Source: an uncultured Pseudobdellovibrionaceae bacterium (lineage in GTDB: Bacteria; Bdellovibrionota; FAC87; UBA2466). From it: a DNA stretch of 64,000 nucleotides. The stretch spans positions 205,991 to 269,990 of the forward strand of contig CAZRZK010000001.1 in assembly GCA_964604555.1 (NCBI GenBank). The letters are read 5' to 3'. The position numbers and the translations under genes are program-made. Position 1 is the first letter of the stretch. The number at the start of each line of letters is the position of its first letter. Under the pieces are notes generated by a model that made no database searches, was not told where the DNA came from, and was given only the letters and a program-made list of their open reading frames with translations. This document shows positions 7,847-60,327 of the stretch, piece by piece.

Positions 7847-7855
7847 CAAAAGGGG

Positions 7856-7888
7856 TGTCATTGCGAGGCTGTCCGCCACGCAATGACA
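7856..7888. repeat. Short hairpin copy of the GTCATTGCG palindromic repeat family between convergent genes
   Basis: tgtcattgcg...cgcaatgaca perfect 10 bp stem; lies between stop of kinase gene (7846) and stop of convergent lipoprotein gene (7906). Confidence 0.5.
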
Positions 7889-18255: not shown

Positions 18256-18278
18256 TCGGTCAATGACCAGTCATGATC

Positions 18279-18314: not shown

Positions 18315-18388
18315 CTTTTCAAATCCCAACACTCTTCTGGCTTGACACAAAAACAACGCAGCGAGACAAGGGCCTAATAGGAGGCCAT

Positions 18389-19144: not shown

Positions 19145-19149
19145 GCACG

Positions 19150-19240
19150 AACGAGATTGCTTCGTCGCTTTGCTCCTCGCAATGACCAACCGTTTGTCAT
19201 TGCGAGGAACGAGCGCAGCGAGTGACGCGGCAATCTCGCA
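19150..19240. repeat. Copy of palindromic REP-like element (GATTGCTTCGTCGC / TCCTCGCAATGAC / GTCATTGCGAGGA / GCGGCAATCTC)
   Basis: gagattgcttcgtcgctttgctcctcgcaatgaccaaccgtttgtcattgcgaggaacgagcgcagcgagtgacgcggcaatctcgc; intergenic before the DegP/HtrA-family protease gene. Confidence 0.7.
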
Positions 19241-19259
19241 GCTGTGATATATATAAATA

Positions 19260-22683: not shown

Positions 22684-22772
22684 ATTGTCATTGCGAGGAG
22701 CCGAAGGCGACGAAGCAATCGCGTTATTGAAGTTGAATTTACGCGATTGCTTCGTCGCCTTCGGCTCCTCGC
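22684..22772. repeat. Near-perfect palindromic REP-like element (38 bp arms, about 20 bp loop)
   Basis: attgtcattgcgaggagccgaaggcgacgaagcaatcgcg...cgcgattgcttcgtcgccttcggctcctcgcaattgtaa directly after the FG-GAP gene stop. Confidence 0.75.
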
Positions 22773-22780
22773 AATTGTAA

Positions 22781-40648: not shown

Positions 40649-40665
40649 AATCAAAAGGAGCTCAT

Positions 40666-42576: not shown

Positions 42577-43020
42577 GGAGATTGCTTCGTCGCCGGAGCC
42601 TGCCGTGAGCGCAGCGTGGCGGTCTCCTCGCAATGACAAATGAGCTGTCATTGCGAGGCCCACCCCTCTTTCGTTGCCATTGTTGTTGACATGTTTTCGG
42701 AAATGAATTTGAGCCTCCCTGTACGATCGAATCCCCAACAGATAAGATTCGAGTAACCCCCTTTTTTTTAAAAAGGGAATATCTGGTCCTCGAAATCCTT
42801 CTTTATCCAACATTTCATTGTATAGAAACCGCGAATGGGGTTTCGGTTCATAGCCAAATTCAGGTGAGTAATTGGCTTCGATTCGAGTATTGAAAGCCGG
42901 CCTATCTTCGGGAAGCTGTGACAATGCAGTAATGAAGCGAAAAGGAATGTGTAAAATCGCTTCAGCAAATAATATTCCTGAAAACAGTCCCAGGACAATT
43001 AGTAAAAGTTTTCTTTTCAT
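42520..43020 (-). CDS. Small secreted hypothetical protein; 3' end of the ORF reads through the REP-like element and into the convergent gene, so true C-terminus is uncertain
   Basis: Signal peptide MKRKLLLIVLGLFSGILFAEA; last about 45 codons are encoded by the repeat (…HLSLRGDRHAALTAGSGDEAISL…). Confidence 0.4.
   Translation of the reverse strand: MKRKLLLIVLGLFSGILFAEAILHIPFRFITALSQLPEDRPAFNTRIEANYSPEFGYEPKPHSRFLYNEMLDKEGFRGPDIPFLKKRGLLESYLLGIRSYREAQIHFRKHVNNNGNERGVGLAMTAHLSLRGDRHAALTAGSGDEAISLKLIGDDFHDVHHAHFFG
42577..42662. repeat. REP-like palindromic element copy
   Basis: ggagattgcttcgtcgcc...tctcctcgcaatgaca...gtcattgcgaggcc immediately after the membrane-anchored Fe-S oxidoreductase gene stop. 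Confidence 0.7.
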
Positions 43021-43050
43021 TGTCCTGGGAAAGTGGTCAGGATTCTTGAA

Positions 43051-43317
43051 TTAGTCTAAATAACAAGTCGTGACCTGACAACTGCTGGAACAGTAGCTAT
43101 GGGCTAAACATTTATTCTTAGCACGATCGATGGCCCACGATTTGCTGGTCGATGAGCCCACAAAACGATAGCCATGTTTATCTTTCGCGATACAGACCCA
43201 TTCTGAGCAATGCGTGTAAGAGCATTTGCTGTAGGGCTCTTTCAGATTTACTGTCAGATTCTCTGCCATCGAACAGGTGACTGCCAATAATAAGAATAGA
43301 TAGATTTTAGTTTTCAT
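43051..43317 (-). CDS. Small secreted cysteine-rich protein (8 Cys in 66 aa mature part)
   Basis: Signal peptide MKTKIYLFLLLAVTCSMA; Cys spacing suggests 4 disulfides; no homolog recognised. Confidence 0.5.
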   Translation of the reverse strand: MKTKIYLFLLLAVTCSMAENLTVNLKEPYSKCSYTHCSEWVCIAKDKHGYRFVGSSTSKSWAIDRAKNKCLAHSYCSSSCQVTTCYLD

Positions 43318-43443
43318 TTTTTCCTCCGTTAGGAGGCCTGATTACAGAAAATTAATTTTAAGATCAAAAGGTATTTTTGTTTTTTGAAAAATATTGTTTC
43401 TAAAAATCTGAAACATTCCGTAGAAGAGGACGGTCATATTTCT

Positions 43444-43751
43444 GTCATTGCGAGGAGCTTGAAGGGCGACGTGGCAATCGTGCTCTGTTGAAATCATCGT
43501 CTTTTATCCAATTTTGTCGGGTTTGGACTCGCCTACCGGCTGACGTAGAAACTCAGATAATCTGCGAGGCTAATGGTTCTGAAGCTTCGAGAGGTCTTTG
43601 TTCCTTGCGCTTTGGAGCTCTTTAACTTTCGTGCTGGAGAAGTTTAGTAAAGTGGCGAAGAAGTCAAGCCAGCCCGATACCCGACAAAATTGGATAAAAG
43701 ACGATGATTTCAACAGAGCATGGCAATCGCGTCGCCCAACGTCATTGCGAG
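43444..43751. repeat. Composite inverted-repeat structure: two about 75 bp arms (41 bp exact core), each carrying a GTCATTGCGAG repeat core, flanking about 155 bp
   Basis: gtcattgcgaggagcttgaagggcgacgtggcaatcgtgctctgttgaaatcatcgtcttttatccaattttgtcggg at 43444..43521 versus cccgacaaaattggataaaagacgatgatttcaacagagca...gtcattgcgag at 43679..43751. Confidence 0.6.
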
Positions 43752-43789
43752 ACCCCATAGGGGTCGAAGCAATCTCCTGGTTTGTATAT

Positions 43790-45197: not shown

Positions 45198-45384
45198 TTC
45201 CTAGCTTTTAAACAAAAATTACGCGCATGTCCAAGTAAATGAAATAAACCGTTTCAAAAAAAATGAAACAACTTTCACTATTAATTTTGAGTAGTTAACT
45301 AAATTACTCTAGCCAACAACCAGGTAAATGAAATTTGACTCAAGGCGATAATACTGCGATACACCGCTCAACATTGGAGAACGC

Positions 45385-47901
45385 ATGTTTCAGATTCTTT
45401 TTTTGATGGCTTTGTCTCTCGGAGCAGAGGAAAACCAACTCAATCAAAAGGTGACCACGCTTTTTAATAGTAAATGCCAAAAGTGCCATAACGCGGAATT
45501 GGCTGAAGGGGATCTCGATCTGACTCAGCTGAAAATGACCGCTGCCCAGAAATTGGAACTCCCCAAGCGCATCGCCCCCGGTGGCGGAATGCCTAAAGGT
45601 GGCGCTCCACTCTCCAAGGAGGAGATTGCACTGGTGGCTGAATGGTTACGGACCACCGATGTGAAACCACCGGTCGTGAAAAGAAAACTAGAACTGAAAG
45701 ATGATATTGATCCTGAGGATCATAAACAGGTATTGGAGCTCCAGATTTTAAGAGTGATCCTGAATGACTTGACCCGTCTCTCTGAAGCGGAAGCGTTGAA
45801 TGCCCGCTATCTCACACTGACCCATTTATGGGTAGCAGGAGAGTCTGAACAGAAAATGGAAGTGTATCGACAAGGCTTAACTAAACTTTTAAACAGCCTT
45901 TCGTGGAAGTCGGGGTTGCATCACCCCGTAGCAATAGATAAGCACAAAACGATTTTGCGCTTTAGCCAGGCTGCTTTGGGCTGGAAGGATTTGCACTGGA
46001 ATCTATTAGCAGCTACCGATCCTTATTTTCGTAAATTGAATGAACCAATCTACAACCTGCTCAGCAAATTTAATCCGGAGGTTCCCGTTCCCTATGTTCG
46101 CGGTGATTCATTTGCCCAAAGGGTAAGCCGTTCTCCTTTTTATGAAGATATTTTGGAGCTTCCCAAAACGGCGAAACAATTGGCCGGTTTTTTTGAGAGT
46201 CCTTTCGAAAAAAATATCCAAGAAGGAAAAGTGGCCCGAGCCGGGTTTCGGAAATCGAATGTTTCAGGTTTCAACCGTCTTATCGAACGCCATGAATTAG
46301 ATACAAAGTTATATAGAACTGTTGGGGGAGGGTATTACTGGAGAAGTTACGATTTCGACGGCAATTCCGGGGATAAGGATCTCTTTAAAAACCCTTTTAC
46401 CGCAGTCGATAAATCCACCAAGAAATTTAATCATGGCGGTGGGGAAGTGATTTTCAGTCTACCCAATGGTATGCAAGCCTATTGGTTGGAAAAGGCCGAT
46501 GGCACTCGTCTTGATATTGCCCCTACCGAAATTGTTTCTGATACCAGTCGTCGTGATACCCGCATCTTCAATGGGATTAGCTGCATGGGCTGCCATGTCG
46601 GAGGACTTCACATTAAATTCGATTCGATCCGTGAACATGCAGAACGGACCCCTGCCGCCTTTAAAGCGGACGATCTCGCACTCATAAAAAAGACCTATAA
46701 GGACCAGACTGAAATGGCCGCCATTTTTAAGAAGGATATCGAACGGTATCAAGCGGCGCTCGGAAAGATCGGGGTCAAAGAGGAGGGGAAACTCGATCCC
46801 ATTCGAACTCTGGTCGATCGATTTGAAGCTCCGGTCGATTTAGAAAATGCCGCGGCAGAACTTGGGATATCGATCGAGCAATTGAAGGCCGAGGCGAAAC
46901 GCAATGTGGAGGTCAGTGAAGCGTTGAGTGAACTTGAGAATGGCGGTTTGCCTCGGGATACATTTATCAAATTCTTTGTTAGCTTCATCCTTTCCGGTGA
47001 TGGAAAAGATAAATTCGGCGCCTTAAAGATCCACAAGCATCCAGAATTTGATCCCCATTTTGAATTTGTAGAAATTCCAGCTGGAAAGTTTCTGATGGGA
47101 AGTCCTAAGACGGAAAAGGGGAGAGATTCTGATCCTGTGGAAAAGCAAAGAGAGGTCACCATTTCCGAGCCATTTGAAATGCAAACGACGCACGTTACTC
47201 AGTCGTTATATGAAAAGGTAAATGGCAGGAATCCTTCTCTTCGCGTAGCAAGAATTAAGCCAGTTGAAAACGTGTCATGGCTTCAAGCCAATCAATTCGC
47301 CCTCGATCTTACTCTACTTCGAAACGACGGCTACACCTATCGCCTACCGACCGATGCAGAATGGGAATATGCTGCGCGTGCCGGAACTCAAACCGCCTAT
47401 TATTTTGGAGACGATCCGGGCAAAGATAATGAGATATTAAAACAGCATGCTTGGTTTGATAAGAAGGAAACGACTTCTGTGGCTTCTCTTAAACCGAATC
47501 CTTGGGGACTCTACGATATGTATGGAAATGCGTTTCAATGGGTAGAAGATATGTTTTCAGAAGATTATCTCAATAATCGAATTCTTCGAGGGGGAGGATT
47601 CCATCATTCACTTTCCGACAGATTACGTTCGGCATCAAAAACTCACTTTAATCGGGATTATGGAGACACTACTACCGGTTTTAGATTAGTGCGAGTAAAG
47701 AAAAAGAAAGCCGAGACTCCTGCCACAAAACCGGCAGTCGTCACCCCGAAGCTCATCGATCCGATGCCATATATTCCACCCCAGCCTTCGCAACCAGTGC
47801 GCACCTCAAACCCTGTAACGCCACTTCCGGCTAACGCAACCATTCAAGAGCGAATCAAATGGTGGGAACAGAACTACCCGCACCTCGTTCCTAAGAAGTA
47901 A
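45385..47901 (+). CDS. Secreted multidomain protein: PSCyt1-like c-type cytochrome domain (CQKCH) + central domain with second CxxCH (CMGCH) + C-terminal formylglycine-generating-enzyme (FGE-sulfatase/SUMF1-like) domain + Pro-rich tail
   Basis: Signal peptide; N-term ...CQKCHNAELAEGDLDL...GGGMPKGG...LVAEWL; C-term ...FVEIPAGKFLMGSP...NVSWLQANQFALDL...YRLPTDAEWEYAARAG...NPWGLYDMYGNAFQWVED...ILRGGGF...GFRLVR. Confidence 0.7.
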   Translation: MFQILFLMALSLGAEENQLNQKVTTLFNSKCQKCHNAELAEGDLDLTQLKMTAAQKLELPKRIAPGGGMPKGGAPLSKEEIALVAEWLRTTDVKPPVVKRKLELKDDIDPEDHKQVLELQILRVILNDLTRLSEAEALNARYLTLTHLWVAGESEQKMEVYRQGLTKLLNSLSWKSGLHHPVAIDKHKTILRFSQAALGWKDLHWNLLAATDPYFRKLNEPIYNLLSKFNPEVPVPYVRGDSFAQRVSRSPFYEDILELPKTAKQLAGFFESPFEKNIQEGKVARAGFRKSNVSGFNRLIERHELDTKLYRTVGGGYYWRSYDFDGNSGDKDLFKNPFTAVDKSTKKFNHGGGEVIFSLPNGMQAYWLEKADGTRLDIAPTEIVSDTSRRDTRIFNGISCMGCHVGGLHIKFDSIREHAERTPAAFKADDLALIKKTYKDQTEMAAIFKKDIERYQAALGKIGVKEEGKLDPIRTLVDRFEAPVDLENAAAELGISIEQLKAEAKRNVEVSEALSELENGGLPRDTFIKFFVSFILSGDGKDKFGALKIHKHPEFDPHFEFVEIPAGKFLMGSPKTEKGRDSDPVEKQREVTISEPFEMQTTHVTQSLYEKVNGRNPSLRVARIKPVENVSWLQANQFALDLTLLRNDGYTYRLPTDAEWEYAARAGTQTAYYFGDDPGKDNEILKQHAWFDKKETTSVASLKPNPWGLYDMYGNAFQWVEDMFSEDYLNNRILRGGGFHHSLSDRLRSASKTHFNRDYGDTTTGFRLVRVKKKKAETPATKPAVVTPKLIDPMPYIPPQPSQPVRTSNPVTPLPANATIQERIKWWEQNYPHLVPKK

Positions 47902-48126
47902 CCTCGCTGTTATTGCTCGCTAACCCCTCCGGGTAAAAAGGCAGGGGTGTGCCTTGAGGAGTTTTTAGTCCTTAAGATATGAGGATGAATTTTTGGGGAA
48001 ATGAAGTCTCATAAGTACAGCCTAATAATCGAGCCAAGCGGCTATCTGACTACTAGAAGCTTGGACTCTTTCCGCGCGGCTCCGGAGTGGGGGTTAGTCC
48101 CCTTGTGGGTCGCCCGAAGACCCGGT

Positions 48127-48169
48127 GGAATTGCGAGGAACGAGCGTAGCGAGTGACGCGGCAATCGCG
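48127..48169. repeat. Half-copy of REP-like element (GAATTGCGAGGAACGAGCGTAGCGAGTGACGCGGCAATCGCG)
   Basis: Near-identical to second half of copy at 19195..19240; sits between convergent genes. Confidence 0.6.
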
Positions 48170-48185
48170 TAGCAATAGCAGGGAA

Positions 48186-48692
48186 TTAATTCCTTTGAAC
48201 AGCAGGGGCTTTTTTGCAACGAATGGAATGGCCATCTAAGCGCTCGGTATTTTCGCTGATCGTCTTGTCCAGTGATTTTAACAATGCTTCGAGATCTTCG
48301 ATCAGTGTTCTAAGTTGGCTAAAAAACAGATCTCGGGTGCTTTCATCCCATGTCGTGGGAGTCTCCATGGGGCTCAGCTCTTTGAGCGCTGCTGCATACC
48401 CGAAAAGCAGCTCCTTGCATTTGGCGTCAGGTATCAGATCTTTGTAATAAAGATTGGCCACCTCGATTACTCTTTGAACTGAATAGAGCGAGGTGCTTTT
48501 TTCGTCCCGATTGGCTGAAAAATTATTCCAGATATTGAGGTAGAGCTCTATCGCCGCTCTGAGTTTTTTTAGGCATTCCAAGGTATCGCAAAGCTTTGTC
48601 TGTTCGGTGCCGGGGCCGGCAGGAACTTCGGCTTGAGCAATGCCCGTGAAGAATAAAAACATAAAATTAAGCGCCAGAATCTTGAATCTCAT
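48186..48692 (-). CDS. Hypothetical secreted protein
   Basis: Signal peptide MRFKILALNFMFLFFTGIAQA; 168 aa. Confidence 0.45.
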   Translation of the reverse strand: MRFKILALNFMFLFFTGIAQAEVPAGPGTEQTKLCDTLECLKKLRAAIELYLNIWNNFSANRDEKSTSLYSVQRVIEVANLYYKDLIPDAKCKELLFGYAAALKELSPMETPTTWDESTRDLFFSQLRTLIEDLEALLKSLDKTISENTERLDGHSIRCKKAPAVQRN

Positions 48693-48793
48693 TTTAGTAC
48701 CCCTTTTGTCTTATCTATCGGCCAAACCAAGCCAATAAATGAGAAGGAAATCGTGAGGTTGAAGCAGAGCGTAGCTTGGGCTATTTTGAAGGG

Positions 48794-51433
48794 ATGAGAT
48801 CTGCCGATATCCGTAGCCGTTTTATCCGTTATTTTGAGTCCCAGGGTCATACCCGGGTTAAAAGTTCGAGCCTCATTCCGGCCGCCGATCCCACGTTGCT
48901 TTTTACCAATGCCGGGATGGTGCAGTTTAAAGATAATTTCTTAGGAAAGGTCGATTCTGGCTATAAAAGGGCAACTACCAGTCAAAAATGTATCCGGGCC
49001 GGGGGAAAGCATAACGATCTCGAAAATGTAGGGTTTACGGCCCGTCACCATACCTTTTTTGAGATGTTGGGGAACTTCTCCTTCGGGGATTATTTCAAAA
49101 AGGAGGCGATCGCTTATGCTTGGGACTTGCTGATAAAGGAATTTAAGTTTCCCAAGGACCGCTTACGGGTCACCGTTTTTCGGGACGATGACGAGGCCTT
49201 TAATCTTTGGAAGGGGCAGGGGATTCCAGCCGATTGGATCACCCGTCTCGGAGAAAAGGATAATTTTTGGGCGATGGGCGATACCGGCCCTTGCGGCCCC
49301 TGCACCGAGATCTACTTCGATCTGGGGAAAGAGTTTGGTCCCGATATTCCCGATTGTAATCCTGGGAATGATGGGGGAACCCGGTTTTTGGAGATCTGGA
49401 ACTTGGTTTTCATGCAGTTCGATAGGAGCTCAGATGGGAAACTGACGCCGCTTCCAAAACCGAGTGTCGATACCGGCGGTGGATTAGAGCGATGGGCAGC
49501 AGTGTTGCAAGGGAAGTTCAGCAACTACGAATCCGATCTCTTTCAACCGATATTGCAAACGATTGCTAAGAGGGTAGGGAAGACTTATGGGACCAGGTCG
49601 GAGGATGATGTTTCGATGCGGGTGATTGCCGACCATTTGAGGTCCGGCGCTTTTTTGATGTCCGATGGAGTCAGTCCCAGTAATGAAGGGCGAGGTTACG
49701 TATTACGTCGTATTTTGCGACGTGCGATTCGGCACGGAAAGAAATTGGGACAGGAAACCCCCTTCCTCTTTGAATTATTACCTTCGGTCGTGGAGAGTTT
49801 GGGGAGTGAATACCCGGAATTGGTCCAACAAAAACAACTCACGACGACCCTTCTGAAAGAGGAAGAGACCAAATTCCATGAAACCCTCCACCGTGGCATG
49901 CATGTCATGGAAGAGGCAATTCAGGCGGCTAAGAAAAAGGGATCGAAGATCTTCTCCGGTGAGGCGGCCTTCAAGCTTTATGATTCCTATGGCTTCCCGA
50001 TGGATCTGATCGAAGTGATCGCCAAGGAAAACCAACTGGATCTGGATCAAAAAGATTTTGACGAACGGATGGATCACCAACGTTCCCAGAGCACCTTTTT
50101 AAAAGGACAGGGGCCGGAACCGGTAGCAAAAATCGAGGCAGGTATCGGTGGGCAGGCGAACACTCGATTTTTAGGTTATGACTGCACCGAAGCCGAAGGC
50201 ACGATTACCCACTTATTTAATGAAGAGGGATCTGCCGTTGATAAATTAAAAGGAAATGGTTTTGTCATCGCCGATCAAACCCCTTTTTATGCGGAAAGTG
50301 GCGGACAGATAGGAGATAAAGGGGAGATTGTGGGCGCAGCGGTGGTTCACAACACCTTTAAGGTTGGTGCAAATTCTGCTCACCGTGTGGAAACCAGTAA
50401 GGAACTCAAAAAAGGGGAAAAGGTAAAGTTCCGGGTGAATCCGGAGCGGCGCCAAGCGACCGCGATCAATCACACCTCGACTCATCTGCTACATGCCGCT
50501 TTACGGAAAGTATTGGGAGATCGAGTGCGACAAGCGGGATCGTTAGTCGATTCGGAACGGCTCCGTTTCGATTTCACCTATCCGCGTGGACTTTCCCCAG
50601 AAGAATTGGCGGAAGTGGAAAGCATGGTAAATGCCGCGGCCGATCGCCAGGAGACGGTAAAGGTCCAGGAGATGGGCTATGATCAGGCGATTCAATCGGG
50701 GGCATTGGCCTTTTTCGACGAGAAATATGGGAGCAATGTTCGGGTGGTGCGGGTTGGTGGAGAGGAGCCCTTTAGTGTCGAGCTCTGCGGAGGGACCCAC
50801 TTAACCAACACCGGCCAAGTGCAGCTTTTTAAGATTACCCAGGAATCTTCGGTTGCGAGTGGAGTGCGTCGTATTGAGGCGGTAACAGCGAAGCGAGCGC
50901 GCGAATTTCTGCTAGATCGTCACCACCTTCTCCAAGGATTGGAACAAAAGCTGGGAACTAAAGGCGAACAGGCGGGCGATAAGATCGAGCAGATTCAGAA
51001 TGAACTAAAATCGAACAAACGGGAAATCGAACAGTTGCAGATGAAGCTCGCTCGTGGAGGGGGCAGTGGAGGCGGTTCGCTCTGGGATAAAAAGATTGAT
51101 ATCAAAGGGATTCAATTTGTCCGCGAAGCTGTCAACGACGTGAAAGCCAACGTGTTGCGCGAATTGGTCGACCAAGTGCGGGACAAATTGAAACAAAAGG
51201 TGGTCGTTTGTCTCGCAAGCCACAGCGAAGGAAAAGTTTTCTTGTGTGTGGGGTTGAGTTCTGATCTGGTCTCCAAATGGAGTGCCTCTGAAATGGTCAA
51301 GGAGATCGCTTCGGAAGTGGGCGGTAGTGGTGGCGGTCGCAACGATTTTGCGCAGGCTGGAGGGACGATTATCGACGGGATTCCAAAAGCGTTTGAAAAA
51401 CTAGAACGGTGGATTATTGGACACGCTGGATAG
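48794..51433 (+). CDS. alaS: Alanine--tRNA ligase
   Basis: Start MRSADIRSRFIRYFESQGH (ORF-track 48776 is extension); class II motifs, editing-domain HxxxH/CxxxH region, C-terminal DHHA1 GGGSGGG. Confidence 0.92.
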   Translation: MRSADIRSRFIRYFESQGHTRVKSSSLIPAADPTLLFTNAGMVQFKDNFLGKVDSGYKRATTSQKCIRAGGKHNDLENVGFTARHHTFFEMLGNFSFGDYFKKEAIAYAWDLLIKEFKFPKDRLRVTVFRDDDEAFNLWKGQGIPADWITRLGEKDNFWAMGDTGPCGPCTEIYFDLGKEFGPDIPDCNPGNDGGTRFLEIWNLVFMQFDRSSDGKLTPLPKPSVDTGGGLERWAAVLQGKFSNYESDLFQPILQTIAKRVGKTYGTRSEDDVSMRVIADHLRSGAFLMSDGVSPSNEGRGYVLRRILRRAIRHGKKLGQETPFLFELLPSVVESLGSEYPELVQQKQLTTTLLKEEETKFHETLHRGMHVMEEAIQAAKKKGSKIFSGEAAFKLYDSYGFPMDLIEVIAKENQLDLDQKDFDERMDHQRSQSTFLKGQGPEPVAKIEAGIGGQANTRFLGYDCTEAEGTITHLFNEEGSAVDKLKGNGFVIADQTPFYAESGGQIGDKGEIVGAAVVHNTFKVGANSAHRVETSKELKKGEKVKFRVNPERRQATAINHTSTHLLHAALRKVLGDRVRQAGSLVDSERLRFDFTYPRGLSPEELAEVESMVNAAADRQETVKVQEMGYDQAIQSGALAFFDEKYGSNVRVVRVGGEEPFSVELCGGTHLTNTGQVQLFKITQESSVASGVRRIEAVTAKRAREFLLDRHHLLQGLEQKLGTKGEQAGDKIEQIQNELKSNKREIEQLQMKLARGGGSGGGSLWDKKIDIKGIQFVREAVNDVKANVLRELVDQVRDKLKQKVVVCLASHSEGKVFLCVGLSSDLVSKWSASEMVKEIASEVGGSGGGRNDFAQAGGTIIDGIPKAFEKLERWIIGHAG

Positions 51434-52490
51434 ATTGCTGATCAAGGAGTTTCTTTCCTTTTTCATTTTAGTGCTCTTGGCGCTCGCTATTCTTTTTATC
51501 GGAATCGATTTTTTTTCCAACTTCTGGAATTTTCAGTGGCCGCTTGCAAAGACCCTGACCTATTACCTCTATAAATTACCGGCTGCACTTCAATTGTTTG
51601 TGCCGGTCGCGAGTTTAATGGCGGTGCTGTTGGTGTTGAGTTCGATGTCGAAACAGAATGAGGTCTTGGCCCTATTTGCTTCGGGGATCAGCACCGCTCG
51701 GGTCGCCTCTACCTTTGTCGCCGCGGTGGCGGCGATCAGTGCCCTTTCTTTTTTAGTTTTTGATCACCTTGTTCCCCCTTTAAATAAGAAACAAAAAATG
51801 TTGGCCCAAGGGCTCGAGGCCAACCAGGACTATAATCTATTTTCCACTCAAGGGAGTTTTTGGTACCGAAGCGGCGATATTATTTATCACGTTGGAAGGT
51901 TTACTCCAGAAACGGCGACCATGGAACAGGTCGATATTTACCAGATTCTGCCCAATCAACAGCTGGCCAAGCAGAGCCATGCTCGCACTGCAAAATACAA
52001 TCCCGATCGAAAGCATTGGATCTTAGAAAATGGGGTGGATATCGATTTCAATGATTCTTTTCCTAATACAACCCCATTCAAGGAATCGGTGGGGGCGATT
52101 CCGGAAAAGCCAACCGATTTTCGGACGCTTCGAATCCAAGAGGACATGATGAAGTTGCGGGATCTGCGCCTCTATATCAATCGTAATCAGGCCTATGGCA
52201 TGGACATGACCCAACAACGGGTCAATTATCATGAGCGGCTCGCGATGGTTTTTACCCCGCTCATCTTTGTGCTCTTGGGAATTCCCTTTGCGCTGCACCC
52301 TCTGAAGAACCGGTCGATGCCCAAGAGTATCGCCTTCTGTTTTTTAATGGTTTTCATCTATCTTTTGATGCTGCGCATGACTTCCTCCATTGGAAAAGGG
52401 GGTAATATTCCGCCTTGGGTAGCCGGATGGGCGCCGAATCTGATTTTTATGGTAGCCTGGTTCTTTTGGCTCTTAAGAGGCAAACGATAA
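51417..52490 (+). CDS. LptF/LptG-family (YjgP/YjgQ) LPS export permease
   Basis: 357 aa, 6 TM with large periplasmic loop, family-typical N-terminal LDRLLIKEFL. Confidence 0.8.
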   Translation: MDTLDRLLIKEFLSFFILVLLALAILFIGIDFFSNFWNFQWPLAKTLTYYLYKLPAALQLFVPVASLMAVLLVLSSMSKQNEVLALFASGISTARVASTFVAAVAAISALSFLVFDHLVPPLNKKQKMLAQGLEANQDYNLFSTQGSFWYRSGDIIYHVGRFTPETATMEQVDIYQILPNQQLAKQSHARTAKYNPDRKHWILENGVDIDFNDSFPNTTPFKESVGAIPEKPTDFRTLRIQEDMMKLRDLRLYINRNQAYGMDMTQQRVNYHERLAMVFTPLIFVLLGIPFALHPLKNRSMPKSIAFCFLMVFIYLLMLRMTSSIGKGGNIPPWVAGWAPNLIFMVAWFFWLLRGKR

Positions 52491-52503
52491 TTTGGGACTC
52501 TAG

Positions 52504-53010
52504 ATGGCACGACTCGAAATTTTAAAATACCCTGATCCCAGGCTTAAAATGATTTCCAAAGAGGTGACGGAGTTCAACCCTGAACTCCGTGCGTTGCTCG
52601 ATTCGATGATCGAGACGATGTATTCGGCCAATGGAGTGGGGCTTGCGGCTCCACAGGTCAATCGGCAATTGCGCGCCTTTGTTATTGATCTTGGTTCGGA
52701 AGAGGATCAAGAGCGAAAGCTTTACGAATTTATCAATCCCCGTCTTTCGAACGGCAAAGGAAAGATCAGCTTTCAAGAAGGCTGTTTAAGTGTGCCCGGC
52801 GTCAGCGAATCGGTTTCCCGTAAAGAAACCATTGAGGTGGAATATCAGGATAGAAGTGGGAAGAAGCAGAGAATGTTGGCAGAAGGACTTCTAAGTGTTG
52901 CGATCCAGCACGAGAATGATCATTTAGATGGGGTGCTTTTTGTGGAACGACTCTCTCTATTGAAACGAAAGATGATTCAAAGGAAGCTAGCGAAGGCCAT
53001 CGAACTATGA
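52504..53010 (+). CDS. def: Peptide deformylase
   Basis: GVGLAAPQV, EGCLSVPG, HENDHLDG motifs. Confidence 0.9.
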   Translation: MARLEILKYPDPRLKMISKEVTEFNPELRALLDSMIETMYSANGVGLAAPQVNRQLRAFVIDLGSEEDQERKLYEFINPRLSNGKGKISFQEGCLSVPGVSESVSRKETIEVEYQDRSGKKQRMLAEGLLSVAIQHENDHLDGVLFVERLSLLKRKMIQRKLAKAIEL

Positions 53011-53933
53011 AGATGGTCTTTATGGGGAGTCCCGGCATTGCGGCCCAAGTTTTTAGAGGTGTTGCCTCAAAATACAGACCCCAGCTCGTGATCACCCAAA
53101 CAGCAAAAGCGGCGGGTCGCGGACAGAAGATGACCCCCACTGCCGTGGCGGAATGGGCAAAGGAATCCAATCTTGCTTATCTCGAAACCGAGAATGTAAA
53201 CAGCGAAGAGATGCTCGCGGAGATTGCTAAAGTGGCTCCCGATGTGATCTGGGTTGTCGCCTTCGGACAAATCTTAAAGGAAAAATTGCTCAACCTTCCG
53301 AAAATCGCCTGCCTCAATGTCCATGCCTCTCTTCTTCCCAAATACCGAGGTGCTGCCCCAGTGCAATGGGCGATTTGGAATGGCGAGAAACAGACCGGGA
53401 TTACCATCCAGAAGATGGTGAAGAAACTGGACGCCGGCGACATTCTCCTTCAAAAAAGGACAGAGATCTGGCCGAAAGAGACCTCGATGGAACTGCTGAA
53501 TCGACTTGGGGATCTCGCCATCACCGGTTTTTTAGAATCGATGCAGCTCTTTGAGTCAGGGAAATATTCTTTTCAAGCACAAGACGACTTGCTTGCTACC
53601 CATGCCCGTAAAATTGAGAAGGACGATGCCGTTATCGATTGGGAACAGTCGGCAGATCAGATCCTCTGCCAAATCCGGGCTCTGCAACCGTGGCCGGTCG
53701 CGGAAACTTGGCTTGAGGGAACTCGCCTGCGGATTTTTAAGGCCGAAAAGATATCGGGAGTGCAACCTCCCGGCATTTTGAAAACTGACGGCCAAACCTA
53801 TTTACAGGTGGGGTGTGGCGATGGCATCCTATCGCTACTTGAATTACAGCTGGAGAGCCGCAAACGCTTGGGAGTAGGCCCATTCTTACAAGGGTTTAAC
53901 GGCGATTTTAAATACCAACGTCTTGGCCGCTAG
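53007..53933 (+). CDS. fmt: Methionyl-tRNA formyltransferase
   Basis: ATGA overlap with def; formyltransferase N-domain (NVHASLLPKYRGAAP) and C-terminal domain. Confidence 0.9.
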   Translation: MKMVFMGSPGIAAQVFRGVASKYRPQLVITQTAKAAGRGQKMTPTAVAEWAKESNLAYLETENVNSEEMLAEIAKVAPDVIWVVAFGQILKEKLLNLPKIACLNVHASLLPKYRGAAPVQWAIWNGEKQTGITIQKMVKKLDAGDILLQKRTEIWPKETSMELLNRLGDLAITGFLESMQLFESGKYSFQAQDDLLATHARKIEKDDAVIDWEQSADQILCQIRALQPWPVAETWLEGTRLRIFKAEKISGVQPPGILKTDGQTYLQVGCGDGILSLLELQLESRKRLGVGPFLQGFNGDFKYQRLGR

Positions 53934-53941
53934 AGGGAACC

Positions 53942-54394
53942 ATGTCTGAACACAAAGCAAAAGTTACCTGGAAACGGGAGACCCCCGATTATGTCTATGA
54001 AACCTATGACCGCACCCATCAGGTCACCTTCCCGGGAGGCATTCAAGTAAAAAGTTCGGCCGCCCCGGAATATATGGGGAAAGCGAGCCTAACTAACCCC
54101 GAAGAATTATTGGGAGCCGCCTTGGGCAGTTGTCATATGCTCACTTTTTTGGCGGTGGCGGCAAAGAGCCGGCTTACGGTCGATAAATATGAGGATAATG
54201 TCGTCGCGATTTTAGATAAAAATGCCAATGGAAAATTGGCGGTGACCAAAGTGATCTTGAGACCGGTAGTTGAATTTGCGCCAGGAGCGAATGTTACCTT
54301 GGAGAAGCTAACCGAACTCCACGACAAGGCCCACCGCAATTGTTTCATTGCAAACTCGGTGGCGTGCGAAGTGGTCATCGAACCCGGACATTGA
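53942..54394 (+). CDS. OsmC/Ohr-family peroxiredoxin-like protein
   Basis: 150 aa; two conserved Cys (LGSCHMLTF..., ...NSVACEV) in OsmC fold context. Confidence 0.8.
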   Translation: MSEHKAKVTWKRETPDYVYETYDRTHQVTFPGGIQVKSSAAPEYMGKASLTNPEELLGAALGSCHMLTFLAVAAKSRLTVDKYEDNVVAILDKNANGKLAVTKVILRPVVEFAPGANVTLEKLTELHDKAHRNCFIANSVACEVVIEPGH

Positions 54395-54409
54395 CTTTAT
54401 CATGCGGGG

Positions 54410-54494
54410 AGATTGCTTCGTTGCTCCGCTCCTCGCAATGACAGAAGTGCGCCGTCAGTGTCATTGCGAGGAGCGGAGCGACGAAGCAATCTCG
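54410..54494. repeat. Best-preserved REP-like palindromic element (35 bp arms, 1 mismatch, 15 nt loop)
   Basis: gagattgcttcgttgctccgctcctcgcaatgaca gaagtgcgccgtcag tgtcattgcgaggagcggagcgacgaagcaatctc between the OsmC/Ohr-like gene and fumC. Confidence 0.8.
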
Positions 54495-54514
54495 TCAATT
54501 TAAAGGAGAATAAA

Positions 54515-55927
54515 ATGGCAGAAGAATTTCGGATTGAAAAAGATTCCATGGGGGAGATGAAGATCCCCTCGAAATACCTCTATGGGGCTTCCACGCAAAG
54601 AGCAGTGGAGAACTTCCCCATTAGCGGATGGCGTTTTAGCCGCGAATTTATCCGTGTCCTTGCTGTGATCAAAGGGGCCTGTGCCGAGGTGAATCGTTCC
54701 CTCGGAAAATTAGATCCGAAAATTGCCGATGCCATTATTAAAACGGCCGAACAGATCGAATCAGGAAAATATGATGAGCATTTTGTTGTCGATATTTTCC
54801 AAACGGGATCGGGCACCAGCACCAATATGAACTACAATGAAGTTGCTGCCAACATCGCCAATCTCGCGGTGGGGAGTGCCGTGGGAAGCAAGAAACCGGT
54901 CCATCCCAATGATCATGTGAACATGGGACAATCGAGCAACGATATTATTCCCACTGCCATTCACGTTGCCGCAGCGGTTGCGGTGAAGGAAAAGTTACTT
55001 CCAGCTCTCACCGGATTGGAAACCACCCTTAATCAAAAAGCAAAACAGTTTGATGGCATCGTAAAAACCGGGCGGACTCACCTTCAAGATGCAACTCCCA
55101 TCACGTTAGGGCAGGAGTTTTCGGGATACGCCTATCAAGTTAAAAAAAGTAAAGAACGGATCGAGGGGGCACTTCAAGGAGTTTATGAATTGGCCGTCGG
55201 TGGAACTGCCGTCGGGACCGGGATCAATACCGATGCTAAGTTTGGTCACTTGGTCAGCGAACAGCTCAAGAAAAAGTTGGGACTTCCTTTTAAGGAATCA
55301 GGAAACCATTTTGAAGCTCAGGCTTCTAAAGATGGTTGTGTCGAGTTGAGCGGGGCTCTCAAGACGGTTGCCGTGAGTTTGACCAAAGTGGCAAATGATA
55401 TTCGCTGGCTCTCGAGCGGACCACGCTGTGGCTTTGCCGAGATTAATCTTCCTGCCGTGCAACCCGGCAGTAGCATCATGCCGGGAAAGGTAAACCCGGT
55501 GATCCCCGAAGCGTTGCTTCAGGTATGTGCCCAGGTGATCGGAAATGATCTTGCTGTATCGTTAGGGGGACAATCGGGCAGTTTCGAACTTAACGTCATG
55601 ATGCCCCTCATTGCCCATAATCTTTTAGGATCGATCCAGATCCTTTCGACGTCCGTGAATGTCTTCAACGAAAAATGTATTAAAGGACTCGAAGCCAATC
55701 TGGAGCGGATCCACGAAACGGTGGAACGTAGTCTGATGTTGGCTACTCCATTGGCTCCGGTTGTGGGTTACGACAAAGCGGCCGAGATCTCGAAGAAGGC
55801 CTTCAAAGAAAATAAGACGGTCCGTGAAATCGCTGAGGCTACGTTGGATCTGTCGAGAGAGCAACTGAATGAGATCCTCGATCCTTCTAAGATGGTTATC
55901 CCTGGTGCGGGTGGGGGCGGAGAGTAA
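54515..55927 (+). CDS. fumC: Fumarate hydratase class II
   Basis: Start MAEEFRIEKDSMGE after AAAGGAGA RBS; signature GSSIMPGKVNP; ORF-track 54413 start is a spurious extension through the repeat. Confidence 0.92.
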   Translation: MAEEFRIEKDSMGEMKIPSKYLYGASTQRAVENFPISGWRFSREFIRVLAVIKGACAEVNRSLGKLDPKIADAIIKTAEQIESGKYDEHFVVDIFQTGSGTSTNMNYNEVAANIANLAVGSAVGSKKPVHPNDHVNMGQSSNDIIPTAIHVAAAVAVKEKLLPALTGLETTLNQKAKQFDGIVKTGRTHLQDATPITLGQEFSGYAYQVKKSKERIEGALQGVYELAVGGTAVGTGINTDAKFGHLVSEQLKKKLGLPFKESGNHFEAQASKDGCVELSGALKTVAVSLTKVANDIRWLSSGPRCGFAEINLPAVQPGSSIMPGKVNPVIPEALLQVCAQVIGNDLAVSLGGQSGSFELNVMMPLIAHNLLGSIQILSTSVNVFNEKCIKGLEANLERIHETVERSLMLATPLAPVVGYDKAAEISKKAFKENKTVREIAEATLDLSREQLNEILDPSKMVIPGAGGGGE

Positions 55928-55980
55928 TAGACGACGATAAGGCAGCATAAAGGCAAGTCTTATGTGTCGTCCCGGTTTTC

Positions 55981-56574
55981 CTATTCAATATTTAAAGTAA
56001 AGATATCAGAGAGAGAATCCAGTATTGTTACATAGGGGATTCTCAAACCAGAGATGTTTTTTTCTGCCGCGCATGTCATGCTGATAACTTCCCCATCCTT
56101 GGTGGTAAGCCCATAGCGACCAACTGCGTAGGAGTCTAAAACCCTTCGCGATATATCCGTAACTGCAAACAACATATCAAACCTGCGTTTCACTTTTTCG
56201 TAGTATGGACTTGGGGGTGGATTTAGAATGCCGACTATCGAGCGGTACTCTAACTCCATACGCACATTCTCTCCATTTTCGTACCAAGACTTAATCATCT
56301 CCAGCAGAGATCCTGTGACTGTAAGCACACTCCCTGCACGCAGCAAAAGATCGTATTCGTAATTGGAATTCACCAAATCACATCGAGCGTGTTCGATGTT
56401 GTTGGAATATAGGGTAACGGGATTGCCGCCCGCAAAGAACGTCACATCCTGTGCAACTGTAATTTTACTATTGCGGGGCAATGGAGCCGCTGGCCTTGCC
56501 ACGGCTTCCGATACCGAAAGCAAAATCGTCATCGATAAGATAATCGTGATTACATTCGAATACATTGCTAGCAT
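55981..56574 (-). CDS. Hypothetical secreted protein
   Basis: Signal peptide MLAMYSNVITIILSMTILLSVSEA; 197 aa. Confidence 0.4.
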   Translation of the reverse strand: MLAMYSNVITIILSMTILLSVSEAVARPAAPLPRNSKITVAQDVTFFAGGNPVTLYSNNIEHARCDLVNSNYEYDLLLRAGSVLTVTGSLLEMIKSWYENGENVRMELEYRSIVGILNPPPSPYYEKVKRRFDMLFAVTDISRRVLDSYAVGRYGLTTKDGEVISMTCAAEKNISGLRIPYVTILDSLSDIFTLNIE

Positions 56575-56717
56575 GCACCCCCCCTGAACCTAAGTAAGAA
56601 GAAACTATAACCAATGCAAGTTATCTGAACCGAGAGTCGATGGCAAAAATAAAAACAAGGGAAAAAGTATCACACCATGATAAGGCAGTAATCACATCAT
56701 ATGATGGCATATTGAAT

Positions 56718-57128
56718 TTAAATCGACTTTAATATTGAACCTTTTGCTAAAGGATCGCATAAATATTTGCGGCTCAAGGGAGAAGCAAGGTCTCCTTCCG
56801 GAAGCTTTTGAATAAATTCGCACTGCGATCGCAGCACATCCTGACATTGGGCGAGGCCCACTCCAATACATTTACCTCCACCGGACCGCCATCGGCAGAT
56901 GCCTTTCTCTTTACAAAGCTGTTCGTATTTAATTCCAGAACAGGATGCATGCTCCGATTCTGAAGAAGGAAGCAATTTTAGGTAACAAGTATCTTTCTGT
57001 TTCCGCTCCTCACTTGAAAAACCACCTCTTCCACTTTCGCGAGGTTCTGCATAGGGATTGATGGCACCACCGCTATCTGCCAGAAGATAGCAGCCAATGT
57101 GTATCAAGATTAAAAAACAATATTTCAC
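56718..57128 (-). CDS. Small secreted cysteine-rich protein (10 Cys)
   Basis: N-terminal hydrophobic signal-like segment; multiple CxxxC/CxC spacings. Confidence 0.4.
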   Translation of the reverse strand: MKYCFLILIHIGCYLLADSGGAINPYAEPRESGRGGFSSEERKQKDTCYLKLLPSSESEHASCSGIKYEQLCKEKGICRWRSGGGKCIGVGLAQCQDVLRSQCEFIQKLPEGDLASPLSRKYLCDPLAKGSILKSI

Positions 57129-57207
57129 TCAACCTATTCTAATGTAATGACGCAGGAGGGTTCAAGTTTGGCCTTAGCATTCCCGATATAGCTCCCACGG
57201 AGGAAAC

Positions 57208-58302
57208 ATGAAGGTACTTGCGCTCATCTTCACCTTTTCACTCACTCTTTATGCCCAAGAATGCACCCACCAGTGGGATATTTACTTTGATACCAACCCC
57301 TTACACTCCAAGTACCTTTCCGGTGATACAGCAACCGGTTACGGTGTTTTTAATTACTGGGGCGATCCCAACTTGGTTTTAAAAATCGAAGGACAGTTTC
57401 CTAAATCCCGTTTCTTGAGTTTTGAAAGTGAAGCAACCGAACTTGCCATCAATGAAGATCACCTTTTCGATTATGAAATGGTGGCGAATGAGGGATCGCG
57501 GAATCCCTTTTTGCCTGGAGAGGACATTGCGACTACCAATCGCTCTTACACCGCATGGGCGATGCAAAATCCACCCGCAGGTAGAGTAAATACTTTCCGC
57601 CTTCCATCGGGACGGCTCACTCAAGCGATCATGTATCGGGTCTATTCTCCGAATGAAGGAGTCAAGCTGACCCGTAAAGATTTGCCTCGGGTGTTTGCCT
57701 ATAATCGTTACACCGGACAATCCACGAGTTGCCCTCGTTTTATCTTTAATGATCCCAAGTTCTATTTCCCCCAATTCTTAGCCGGCATTTATACTCTCTT
57801 CACTCCCTTTGAATTCAAGCAACCCGAAAACATGACAATCGCGGGGCTAAACAAAGCAGCGGGATATGCATTTGCCTTAACTCCCTTGTCTACCAATGAA
57901 GTTGTGGTTGTTAAATTCAAAGCTCCCACCTTCTTCAATTCCCATTCAGGGAAGGGAATCTTTTCCTTAGATAGCCAGGTTCGGTATTGGTCCTTCTGCA
58001 CCAGCAATCTTCCCAAAAATCAGACCTTGAATTGCCTCCCCGATTTTAAATCGAAACCGGATAGCAAAGGTTATGTCACAGTAGTGGTGGGAACAGGGGA
58101 TTCGGTTAAGAAAAAAGCTGAACAACAGGGCTATTCTTTTCTGCCCGATGCTCGTCAATGGACCCAAAAAGTAATGGGCTTTGTTTATCGAAATTTAGTA
58201 GTGCGGGAAGACTTTAAGGAAAAGGATATGTATCAAGGTGAATACCTTCCCCATGGAAAGGTCTGCTCACGCAATTCTTTTTTAGCAGGCAGTTGTCGTT
58301 AA
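57208..58302 (+). CDS. Hypothetical secreted protein
   Basis: Signal peptide MKVLALIFTFSLTLYA; 364 aa. Confidence 0.45.
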   Translation: MKVLALIFTFSLTLYAQECTHQWDIYFDTNPLHSKYLSGDTATGYGVFNYWGDPNLVLKIEGQFPKSRFLSFESEATELAINEDHLFDYEMVANEGSRNPFLPGEDIATTNRSYTAWAMQNPPAGRVNTFRLPSGRLTQAIMYRVYSPNEGVKLTRKDLPRVFAYNRYTGQSTSCPRFIFNDPKFYFPQFLAGIYTLFTPFEFKQPENMTIAGLNKAAGYAFALTPLSTNEVVVVKFKAPTFFNSHSGKGIFSLDSQVRYWSFCTSNLPKNQTLNCLPDFKSKPDSKGYVTVVVGTGDSVKKKAEQQGYSFLPDARQWTQKVMGFVYRNLVVREDFKEKDMYQGEYLPHGKVCSRNSFLAGSCR

Positions 58303-58784
58303 TAAACTGCGAATCGATGACATTGCCACCCGCTTCTTAAAAAAGACGCAGGTAGTATTCGGCGGAAGCGTTTGATCAGAATAATTCCGCGAGTGATCAA
58401 TACATAAAATGAACCGATCCAGTTTTGCCATTCGAATCGCATCGAATTTCCTTTTCAGGTAATCGGGCATCCAAATGCCAATGATTTCGAGAAACCACGT
58501 CTGATTAGGATCATTTCTGTTTCGAAGCAGAAAATCGGGAAAGATATGAGAAGGGTCTGCGTGGACCGGTTCGGGTTCCGAGATCAAATCCCAATCTTTA
58601 AATTCCTTCATGAAGTCTCACGCAAATTGAGCCTTTATCTAATACTCACTGGCAATGATCACCTCAATGAAATCTTGGATTTTATGGCGAGATACTTGCT
58701 ACATTCAGAAGGTCCTATTTCCTGCCACAAAAATCAGGGATGATATATTTTCTTCCAACTAAAATCGTATATAAGTCATCCTCG

Positions 58785-59504
58785 ATGAATCAAAAGATTT
58801 TTACCGTTTTATGTCTTTTAGCCCCCATCGCAAGTGCCAATCAGGAAGGGGCGAATCCACCTTTTAAAGGAACCTGCGCTGCGATCACCTATGAATTGTC
58901 GCTCGGGATTGAAAGCCGGATTACCCATTCCGGCCTGGTTGAGTACCAAAATCCGATCTTGCATGAAAAGGGGGGCTCTATCCAGCTTTTAGAAATGGTT
59001 CCCGAAGTATTGAAGGATTACAACCCACTTCCTGACCCTATCTGGCGGGTTGTAACAAAGAGGTTAAGAGGAGAACAAAAAATTCTCCTTGAATTTACGA
59101 GTCCTCAAAACAAGAATGAAAGACTCTCTCTAGACATTACATTATCCGCAACTTACGAGCTATCCTGGGACCTCACCCAGCGTGTCTTTCAGGAAAATTA
59201 TGGAGTTACATTAAGCCATGGCTCCACAATCGTAGGTAAGCTTTATTTTACTAATCCCGCGGTCGATACTCACTTTTATTTACACATCCCGGTAACGGGT
59301 ATCCTGGGATATCCAAGATTTAATCCTAAGGAGCATCACACGAACGTTATGTTAAAACTTTGGAAATCGGGATTGGAAGACGACCTCCTTGAGTTTTATT
59401 TGCCTCCTGATTCCGGTCCCAACGAGCCGTCTTCCAGCCACGATTTCGATCCTAACGAGCCCCAGACACCACCGGGATTCAACAGGATTTCATCTTCCGA
59501 ATAA
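58785..59504 (+). CDS. Hypothetical secreted protein (start at internal Met MNQKIF... with signal peptide)
   Basis: Signal peptide MNQKIFTVLCLLAPIASA; ORF-track start 58740 is an extension. Confidence 0.45.
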   Translation: MNQKIFTVLCLLAPIASANQEGANPPFKGTCAAITYELSLGIESRITHSGLVEYQNPILHEKGGSIQLLEMVPEVLKDYNPLPDPIWRVVTKRLRGEQKILLEFTSPQNKNERLSLDITLSATYELSWDLTQRVFQENYGVTLSHGSTIVGKLYFTNPAVDTHFYLHIPVTGILGYPRFNPKEHHTNVMLKLWKSGLEDDLLEFYLPPDSGPNEPSSSHDFDPNEPQTPPGFNRISSSE

Positions 59505-59516
59505 AAGCAGGGTCAG

Positions 59517-59639
59517 AGGGCCACCGCAAAGTCCTTGGCCAAGTTGTCATGGTGAGGTGCAGCCGAATTCATCTCGTCGTCATTGCTTCTACAATGGGAT
59601 TGCTTCGACCTCTCGCTATAACGACTTTGCGGTGGCCCT
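59517..59639. repeat. 16 bp inverted repeat (GGGCCACCGCAAAGTC / GACTTTGCGGTGGCCC) flanking a degenerate GTCATTGC...GATTGCTTCG copy
   Basis: Seen directly; lies just after stop of 58785..59504. Confidence 0.5.
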
Positions 59640-59766
59640 GGAACCAGAATGAATGGTTGTAAATCTGTGGCAGATAAATAACTTCGCTTTATACTTGTGA
59701 TGAGTTGTTTGACCTTAATCTTCCCCATATCCTATTTACTGGTACTTATCAATCGAGGGGGAACTG

Positions 59767-60327
59767 ATGAAAAATCAATGGATGCTCTGGGGACTCTTTG
59801 GAGTCCTCTCTGTTTTATCCTCTGCAGATCCAATTATGCATTGTGAAGGAGGTCTTTATAACTCAGCAGCTAGCCTCCTTTTTGAAGGGGATCAAATTGT
59901 ATTCGATTACAAGGGCCCCTATTCTATCATTCTCAATCCCTTTGCCGTTTCAATTGGGCTCGCGGTCTCTTCTGAAAATCCTGTGGTGCGAATGGTTTTT
60001 CGGCGTCTCGTCTCTCCGCTAAACGAGAAATGTTTGATTGATTACAAGGAACCTTTTAATCTTCTACGCTGCCCGCTGAACGAGAACGAAATCAGCTCAG
60101 AAATTGAATTCCATTTCAAAGATCAGAGCATAAAGAAGGTCTCTTCCAAATACAGCGCAATTCATTTAGAACGGCACATCACCGAATTTGCAGGTGGGGG
60201 AAAAGCTGACTTTGGATATGTCAAACTCCATTTTATGGCGCTACCGCCTTCTTCCGTTATCCAAGAATTAAAGCTCCCGTTCACTACCATCACTGGTCCG
60301 AATGGATTTCATTATTGCGTCCGATAA
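59767..60327 (+). CDS. Hypothetical secreted protein
   Basis: Signal peptide MKNQWMLWGLFGVLSVLSSA; 186 aa. Confidence 0.45.
   Translation: MKNQWMLWGLFGVLSVLSSADPIMHCEGGLYNSAASLLFEGDQIVFDYKGPYSIILNPFAVSIGLAVSSENPVVRMVFRRLVSPLNEKCLIDYKEPFNLLRCPLNENEISSEIEFHFKDQSIKKVSSKYSAIHLERHITEFAGGGKADFGYVKLHFMALPPSSVIQELKLPFTTITGPNGFHYCVR

Follow-up and report, generated by a model that had tools for sequence, protein, structure and literature searches.

The repeats found in the window, the whole 64-kb stretch of DNA analysed here, are very probably gene-less copies of an Ssn-related motif (SRM) belonging to the superfamily of CGTC-tagged REP sequences, and as such hairpins of a kind that is recognised by a nuclease of the Ssn type. 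The evidence comes from the shape and sequence of the repeats, from their distribution among bacteria and phages, and from loci elsewhere in which the same unit borders a small nuclease gene of the GIY-YIG type.

One oriented unit recurs about 13 times in the window, at eight loci, either as singles or as inverted doublets. Read one by one, these loci give the consensus YGTC-ATTGC-GA-(variable hairpin)-GAA-GCAAT-C, and the units of the window itself read TGTC-ATTGC...GCAAT-C, with a GC-rich and variable distal hairpin and with the C after GCAAT extended as C(TC/CAG/GCG). The box TGTCATTGCGAGGA has 11 matches in the window against 0.53 expected, and the box GCGACGAAGCAATC has eight against 0.43 expected. 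A covariance model that was trained solely on copies from outside the window, and then run on it, detects eight strong and five weak or degenerate units, all of them at the eight loci that had been listed in the original prediction. Since a scan of the whole window with this model finds no unit beyond these loci, that list is complete. The earlier description of the family as dense, REP/BIME-like nested palindromes that sit at gene ends and make false ORF extensions is supported. At the Rfam gathering score, the sole matches in the window are two tRNAs, and the repeats match no family; by E-value, the locus at 54408-54494 has only sub-threshold matches to generic hairpins (miRNA precursors).

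The arrangement of the units differs from locus to locus (Table 1). The tags face the spacer in the doublets at 19152-19238, 42577-42659, and 54408-54494, and the 3' boxes face it in the doublet at 22685-22775. The units at 43442-43482 and 43739-43777 form a direct pair, and the unit at 48126-48170 is single. In the doublet at 54408-54494, the YGTC tags of both units point to a 15-nt spacer, and as ssDNA the whole folds with -45.3 kcal/mol (z -11.8). This doublet had been described as having 35-nt arms with one mismatch, which is correct for 54409-54493, and as the best preserved of all copies, which is not, as the arms within 22690-22775 have zero mismatches. The latter doublet, at 22685-22775, has 35-nt arms (22690-22724 and 22741-22775) that are 100% complementary and are separated by a 16-nt spacer, and it folds with -50.7 kcal/mol (z -14.4). 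Its arrangement is that of the ends of the GIY-YIG module described below, without a gene between them.

Table 1. Copies of the repeat unit in the 64-kb window, with the support for each and its immediate setting.
Feature	Position	Strand	Support	Setting
Short hairpin of two left boxes, TGTCATTGCGAGGC / GCCACGCAATGACA	7856..7888	.	inverted-repeat pair; weak covariance match 7855-7885+	between convergent genes; TTTTT directly after
Full unit	19152..19188	-	covariance 55.8 bits	begins 8 nt past the stop codon of 18263-19144
Variant unit with longer distal region, 3' box GACGCGGCAATC	19194..19238	+	covariance 29.1 bits, E 3.8e-5	stops 22 nt short of an htrA-like gene
Full unit, left arm of opposite-type doublet	22685..22723	+	covariance 43.9 bits	
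Full unit, right arm	22741..22775	-	covariance 30.1 bits (match 22745-22775); inverted-repeat pair	
Unit with 36-nt GC-rich distal insert	42577..42638	-	box matches; weak covariance match 42584-42631	starts 1 nt past the stop codon of 40600-42576
Left box only, TGTCATTGCGAGGC	42646..42659	+	pairs with the left box of unit 42577..42638	
Unit with 3' box GACGTGGCAATC	43442..43482	+	covariance 22.5 bits, E 0.0017	3' end broken by a 236-bp inverted-repeat element
Unit with perfect distal helix GACCCC-ATA-GGGGTC	43739..43777	+	covariance 41.5 bits; folds alone as predicted, z -3.3	
Single variant unit AATTGCGAGG...GACGCGGCAATCGCG	48126..48170	+	weak covariance match 48130-48166, 10.9 bits	between convergent genes
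Full unit, left arm of doublet	54408..54444	-	covariance 53.3 bits, E 3.8e-11; inverted-repeat pair	
Full unit TGTCATTGCGAGGAGCGGAGCGACGAAGCAATCTC, right arm	54458..54494	+	covariance 58.4 bits, E 2.1e-12	20 nt ahead of the fumC ATG
Degenerate remains	59544..59624	.	weak covariance matches 59595-59624- and 59544-59576+	keeps an exact 3' box at 59598-59607(-)

The element that separates the two direct units occupies 43483-43718, within the 3' end of the first of them. It has perfect 40-bp terminal inverted repeats (CTCTGTTGAAATCATCG...), and the TGGCAATCG found on both sides of it looks like a 9-bp target duplication. It looks like a miniature transposon that was inserted recently; the window contains no second copy of it.

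The window holds other features as well. A 260-aa ORF at 7906-8688 (-) has a weak, sub-threshold match to the NCBIfam family of prokaryotic gasdermins (E 4.5e-5, 23 bits vs a cut-off of 100) and no Pfam match. Six co-directional ORFs occupy 24948-29684 (-), five of them without a Pfam match and the last with a Planctomycete cytochrome c domain, and an ORF for a ParE toxin lies at 20342-20599. At 58282-58611 (-), a 109-aa ORF is probably a gene fragment, as its match to DUF790 is confined to the C-terminal quarter of the profile (positions 289-386 of 387). The region around this ORF, from fumC to the OmpA/FliL genes that are syntenic in relatives, is variable.

The position of the units relative to genes was taken from the Pfam annotation of the flanking ORFs, and in the window, they lie 1-21 nt past stop codons or between genes. 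The exception is the copy at 42577-42659, which is inside the 3' end of ORF 42520-43020(-) and encodes its last ~50 codons. The units also account for misread gene boundaries. The true start of fumC is the ATG at 54515, which is preceded by AAAGGAGA; because the Lyase_1 domain of FumC begins at residue 13 counted from this ATG, the TTG-started extension from 54413 is repeat-encoded. The peptide SLRGAERRSNL falls within this extension, LAMT..SLRG..DEAIS occurs in the tail of 42520-43020, and DCFVALLLAMT..SLRG occurs in ORF 19032-19247. Reading the translations of these ORFs thus confirms the pseudo-peptides and false extensions that had been proposed for all of them.

A role of the repeats in termination or in the protection of mRNA 3' ends is weakly suggested, and one could go further and consider the units to be RNA-level signals (terminators or 3'-end stabilisers) that are selected by the host, with any link to a nuclease being secondary. 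The short distance from stop codons speaks for this, as do the very stable hairpins made by the doublets, the T-run after 7856-7888, and the argument of Di Nocera et al. (PMC3733652) that many REPs are transcribed. However, this T-run is the only one seen; the other copies are without one, in both orientations, and a terminator scan of 42000-60000 scores no copy as terminator-like. (A separate terminator-like site, at 48192-48208, adjoins the copy at 48126-48170.) Relative to genes, the units are found in either orientation, and some are directly ahead of start codons, such as the one at 54458-54494 and copies in phages. In addition, one sequence with an oriented YGTC...C flank is shared by many phyla, as would be expected of a DNA site recognised by a protein; the repeats match no Rfam family, and SsnA, the Neisseria nuclease discussed below, does not bind RNA (PMC11893778). 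RNA-level signalling as the primary function is therefore improbable, although the units may have side effects on mRNA.

The reading of the units as DNA hairpins recognised by a nuclease can be examined in the anatomy of the unit, for which a set of 626 copies was used, whose distal regions take 371 distinct forms. In the distal regions, 69% of the positions, taken from the outside in, are Watson-Crick paired compared to 28% in shuffles, and the loops are mostly GNA triloops. Among 73 units of equal length, each of the five distal pairs has changes on both sides, and there are 57 compensatory cells compared to 14.7 in shuffles, a count reached by none of 500 shuffles. As a control, the partner was slid by one to three columns, and the covariation signal was gone. 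The distal part is as short as 5 nt and can exceed 40 nt. In the commonest class (GGAGC-NNN-GCGAC), a tandem G·A/A·G replaces two pairs, and in the minimal class, the distal hairpin is GCGAAGC, a well-known very stable DNA mini-hairpin. With nearest-neighbour DNA parameters, doublets fold extremely stably; single units of the commonest class fold no better than shuffles, which means that the structure of the single unit rests on covariation.

The conservation of the basal stem is uninformative alone because the search pattern fixed this stem. Among subfamilies, however, the stem varies in a complementary fashion (ATTGC/GCAAT, ATTCT/AGAAT, ATTCCC/GGGAAT, ATCCCC/GGGGAT, and ATCCCAGGG/CCCTGGGAT). 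In three independent sets of loci, conservation reaches 97-100% for the GTC ahead of the palindrome and 99% for the C right after it, and both positions lie outside the search pattern. The tail after the stem is C-CAG or C-TC, and the information drops to zero farther out. On sequence grounds, then, the constrained parts of the unit are the tag, the 5-bp basal stem, the GA/GAA loop, and the trailing C, and the free part is the distal helix.

The original prediction named a lack of copies outside the window as a ground for refuting it, and this refutation fails, since many further copies were found elsewhere. The pattern CATTGCGAGG-N6-36-CGAAGCAATC, when used to search IMG/VR and a one-genome-per-species collection, returned at least 120 stretches in IMG/VR and at least 120 in the collection. 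The unit family is not lineage-specific; it occurs in many phyla, including candidate-phyla bacteria, and in phages. The hosts among the matches listed include Anaerolineales, Dehalococcoidia, Bradyrhizobium, Sphingomonadales, Gammaproteobacteria, Desulfobacteraceae, Pedobacter, Hymenobacter, Chryseobacterium, Tannerella, Helicobacter rodentium, several Patescibacteria, Planctomycetota, Omnitrophota, Zixibacteria, Ignavibacteriota, Armatimonadota, and Gemmatimonadota. Some of the viral contigs that bear units are true phages; in one of them (L001), the unit lies among genes that include those for a portal and a major head protein.

The organisation of the units can also be compared between viral and bacterial loci. 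In the viral contigs among the matches listed (e.g., L052, L110, and L005), units are mostly single and co-oriented, with 78 of 96 in the majority orientation, and in 11 of the 26 listed viral loci with at least three units, all of them are on one strand. In bacterial loci, inverted doublets are common, and 19 of 33 units are in the majority orientation. Closer to the window, the nearest relatives of its fumC are 80-83% identical, and synteny upstream of fumC differs in the relatives. The nearest fumC hits with a label are a "[bacterium]" at 79% and, at about 70%, Deltaproteobacteria and Bdellovibrionales, and clustering at 90% identity leaves the proteins of the organism as singletons. The loci of two fumC relatives (21 kb and 15 kb) contain no units, and these unit-free relatives hint, weakly, at an expansion specific to the lineage.

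Whether sequences of this kind border small GIY-YIG genes was tested first in the unit-seeded loci. Among the matches listed, a GIY-YIG gene is nearby in 3 of 240 such loci, and in two of these three, the gene lies exactly between a unit and an inverted unit. Clustering of the neighbouring ORFs in the unit-seeded loci yielded phage structural genes only. Statistics from gene calls on orientation and on the inside/intergenic split were left out, the caller having over-extended ORFs through the units.

The association became clear in a search seeded with the protein instead (95-aa GIY-YIG, Pfam PF01541), which found 587 metagenomic relatives, the best 80 of which were examined. In these 80, the upstream unit ends 9-26 nt (mode 17) ahead of the start codon in 50 of 75 cases, and in 55 of 77, the inverted unit starts 4-6 nt past the last codon. 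Of 72 loci, 40 have units on both sides of the gene and 61 on at least one side. The stop codon of the GIY-YIG gene often overlaps GAGATTGC, and the protein-seeded loci carry ~150 further units in 185 kb. Pairs of these loci are 80-92% similar up to the outer ends of the units, at 49-51 nt upstream of the gene and 31-39 nt downstream, and no farther. The module is conserved from (A)TGTCATTGCGAGG to CTCGCAATGAC(A), and the flanks are unrelated. Since the similarity stops at the outer unit ends and the flanks are unrelated, the unit, the gene, and the inverted unit form a discrete piece that is found in different contexts. The alignments of the module boundaries reveal no obvious target duplication. 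The loci were also searched for cargo between inverted units, and neither a recurrent gene besides the GIY-YIG gene nor a Y1 transposase was present there.

The flanked GIY-YIG protein shares 44% identity with the gonococcal homologue whose gene has NTS flanks, and it keeps the residues that align with Y6, Y17, and E64 of SsnA. In more distant homologues, from Planktothrix, Spirosoma, Azospirillum, Rhizobium, and Neisseria, the flanking units share the tag and the tail, and their stems are different and complementary. Genes annotated as "GIY-YIG nuclease family protein" (L321-L325) lie between unrelated genes, each with its own variant of the tagged hairpin. For example, the Azospirillum gene sits between sufB and sufC, and the Planktothrix gene sits between an MmeI-type enzyme and DISARM drmA.

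A characterised system of this type is found in Neisseria. According to Chenal et al. 2025 (Nat Commun, PMC11893778), SsnA, which binds the Neisseria NTS (CGTCATTCCCGCGMAVGCGGGAATCYRG), has 94 aa and a GIY-YIG domain (cd10448) as its single domain. It recognises the NTS on one strand and solely in the form of ssDNA, and its cut falls a few nucleotides upstream; it has no activity on dsDNA and no RNA binding (PMC11893778). Binding depends most on the C after the palindrome and cleavage most on the three bases ahead of it, and the loop tolerates deletion or extension (PMC11893778). Such binding and cutting of ssDNA only is known for just four enzymes, from Neisseria and Wolbachia (PMC11893778).

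The window unit is an oriented DNA hairpin composed of the YGTC tag, ATTGC/GCAAT, the GA/GAA loop, the variable distal helix, and the C with its short tail. By analogy with the NTS–SsnA pair, an Ssn-family GIY-YIG nuclease of ~95 aa would bind the unit when its strand is single-stranded and would nick it on the 5' side of the tag, at a distance of a few nucleotides. The gene of this nuclease would travel as a discrete module, ordered as unit, ssn, and inverted unit, and the solo units and inverted doublets, which number in the hundreds, would be the non-autonomous relatives of this module. There is no Ssn or other GIY-YIG gene in the 64-kb window, which is part of a contig of 308,097 bp; a cognate Ssn that cuts these units would be encoded elsewhere in the genome. 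Effects on recombination or transformation are possible, and transcripts nearby may show side effects.

The ATTGC-class module could also be more than a nuclease with its sites. It might be an autonomous mobile element with the 95-aa GIY-YIG enzyme as its sole protein, one that crosses phyla, candidate-phyla bacteria and phages among them, and seeded the copies in the window. This idea was raised earlier as a hypothesis by Chenal et al. (PMC11893778), and the support for it here is limited to the sharp boundaries of the module in unrelated contexts. We hold it tentatively and consider it somewhat doubtful.

The reverse order of events can be proposed as well, in which the units already existed and spread by other means, and the GIY-YIG gene is a homing-type passenger that landed between an inverted pair, with the units as its landing pads. 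In favour of this, a gene-less doublet of the same end arrangement is present at 22685-22775, the units bound the modules exactly, and they far outnumber the genes. Homing needs a double-strand cut, however, and SsnA is inactive on dsDNA (PMC11893778). Also, the flanking stems change with the lineage of the protein, which fits specific recognition better than chance lodging, so a passenger of this type is quite improbable. As for classical REP/REPIN elements mobilised by a RAYT, which the original prediction had put forward, inverted doublets do resemble REPINs and the copies are dense, intergenic, and at gene ends, but the suggestion is unsupported and very improbable because the tag is YGTC and not GTAG, the Y1 transposase domain (PF01797) is absent from 62 ORFs of the window and from the cargo between inverted units in the loci searched, the gene enclosed by inverted units in related loci is that of a GIY-YIG nuclease, and CGTC repeats are listed as having no association with a transposase (Di Nocera et al. 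2013, PMC3733652).

If the repeats are copies of an SRM, as we consider very probable, one of the most widely spread repeat sequences of bacteria would be tied to the Ssn nuclease family. The ATTGC class would be an addition to that family's motifs that the published SRM search pattern missed, as well as a data point on how CGTC-type repeats spread. In practice, the units account for recurrent spurious peptides (SLRGAKRRSNL, DCFASLAMT, VIARS...) in many genomes and for false start and stop extensions in many genome annotations. The division of the hairpin into constrained and free parts is a ready design for testing a new Ssn specificity. Should the autonomous-element reading be true, the module would represent a class of prokaryotic transposon built on a GIY-YIG enzyme.

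The closest known system is that of NTS or SRM and Ssn. According to Chenal et al. (PMC11893778), 42% of SsnA homologues bear SRM on both sides, and the layout NTS–ssnA–NTS has been likened to an insertion sequence. As in that system, the window-type unit is a multi-copy hairpin repeat in the range of 20-50 nt, with YGTC directly 5' of the palindrome, C directly 3' of it, and a CYRG-like tail. There are likewise hundreds of mostly intergenic copies of the ATTGC-class unit, and a gene for a nuclease of ~95 aa lies between inverted copies, in related loci and not in the window. The unit differs in that its basal stem is just 5 bp (ATTGC/GCAAT), with the conserved GA/GAA internal loop next to it and, beyond this loop, a distal helix that is hypervariable. 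Because of this build, the published SRM pattern, HGTCWYN(0-2)YYVSBRHN(0-5)WNVSBRGN(0-2)RNCYNB, matches none of the 626 units and neither strand of the window; the positive controls (the Neisseria NTS and the Azospirillum and Rhizobium units) do match it. The ATTGC class also reaches well beyond the symbiont-rich Proteobacteria stressed by Chenal et al., to Patescibacteria, Chloroflexota, Planctomycetota, and phage genomes, and it is present in phyla and phages that their paper leaves undiscussed. The main text of Chenal et al. 2025 (PMC11893778) makes no mention of the ATTGC-class sequence, and a literature search for the box sequences and for GIY-YIG genes with REP-type repeats did not find the box sequences.

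The superfamily of CGTC-tagged REPs was described by Di Nocera et al. 2013 (PMC3733652). Its members, which include dRS3 of Neisseria and RPE-4 and RPE-6 of Rickettsia, have a CGTC or TGTC tag, a stem that opens with two A-T pairs, and a short tail after the stem; dimers predominate, and the repeats "apparently lack a dedicated transposase" (PMC3733652). The window-type unit shares the unpaired CGTC/TGTC tag, the A-T pairs at the first two stem positions, the short tail, the frequent inverted dimers, and the occasional read-through into gene ends. The stem of the CGTC-tagged REPs is an uninterrupted 8-9 bp with a loop of 4-5 nt, whereas the window-type stem is interrupted after 5 bp and its loops are mostly 3-nt GNA.

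A more distant likeness is to the REP/REPIN–RAYT and IS200/IS605 systems. In these as well, short hairpin repeats are acted on as ssDNA, as is predicted for the window units, and a single small nuclease gene lies between repeats that also occur in many non-autonomous copies and doublets. The fold of the enzyme is unrelated, being GIY-YIG here and HUH/Y1 there, and the tag is YGTC here compared to GTAG in REP/REPIN–RAYT. Unlike in IS200/IS605, where both cuts are made on one strand, the two cuts of the Ssn module, given its inverted units and a cut 5' of each of them, are predicted to fall on opposite strands outside the module.
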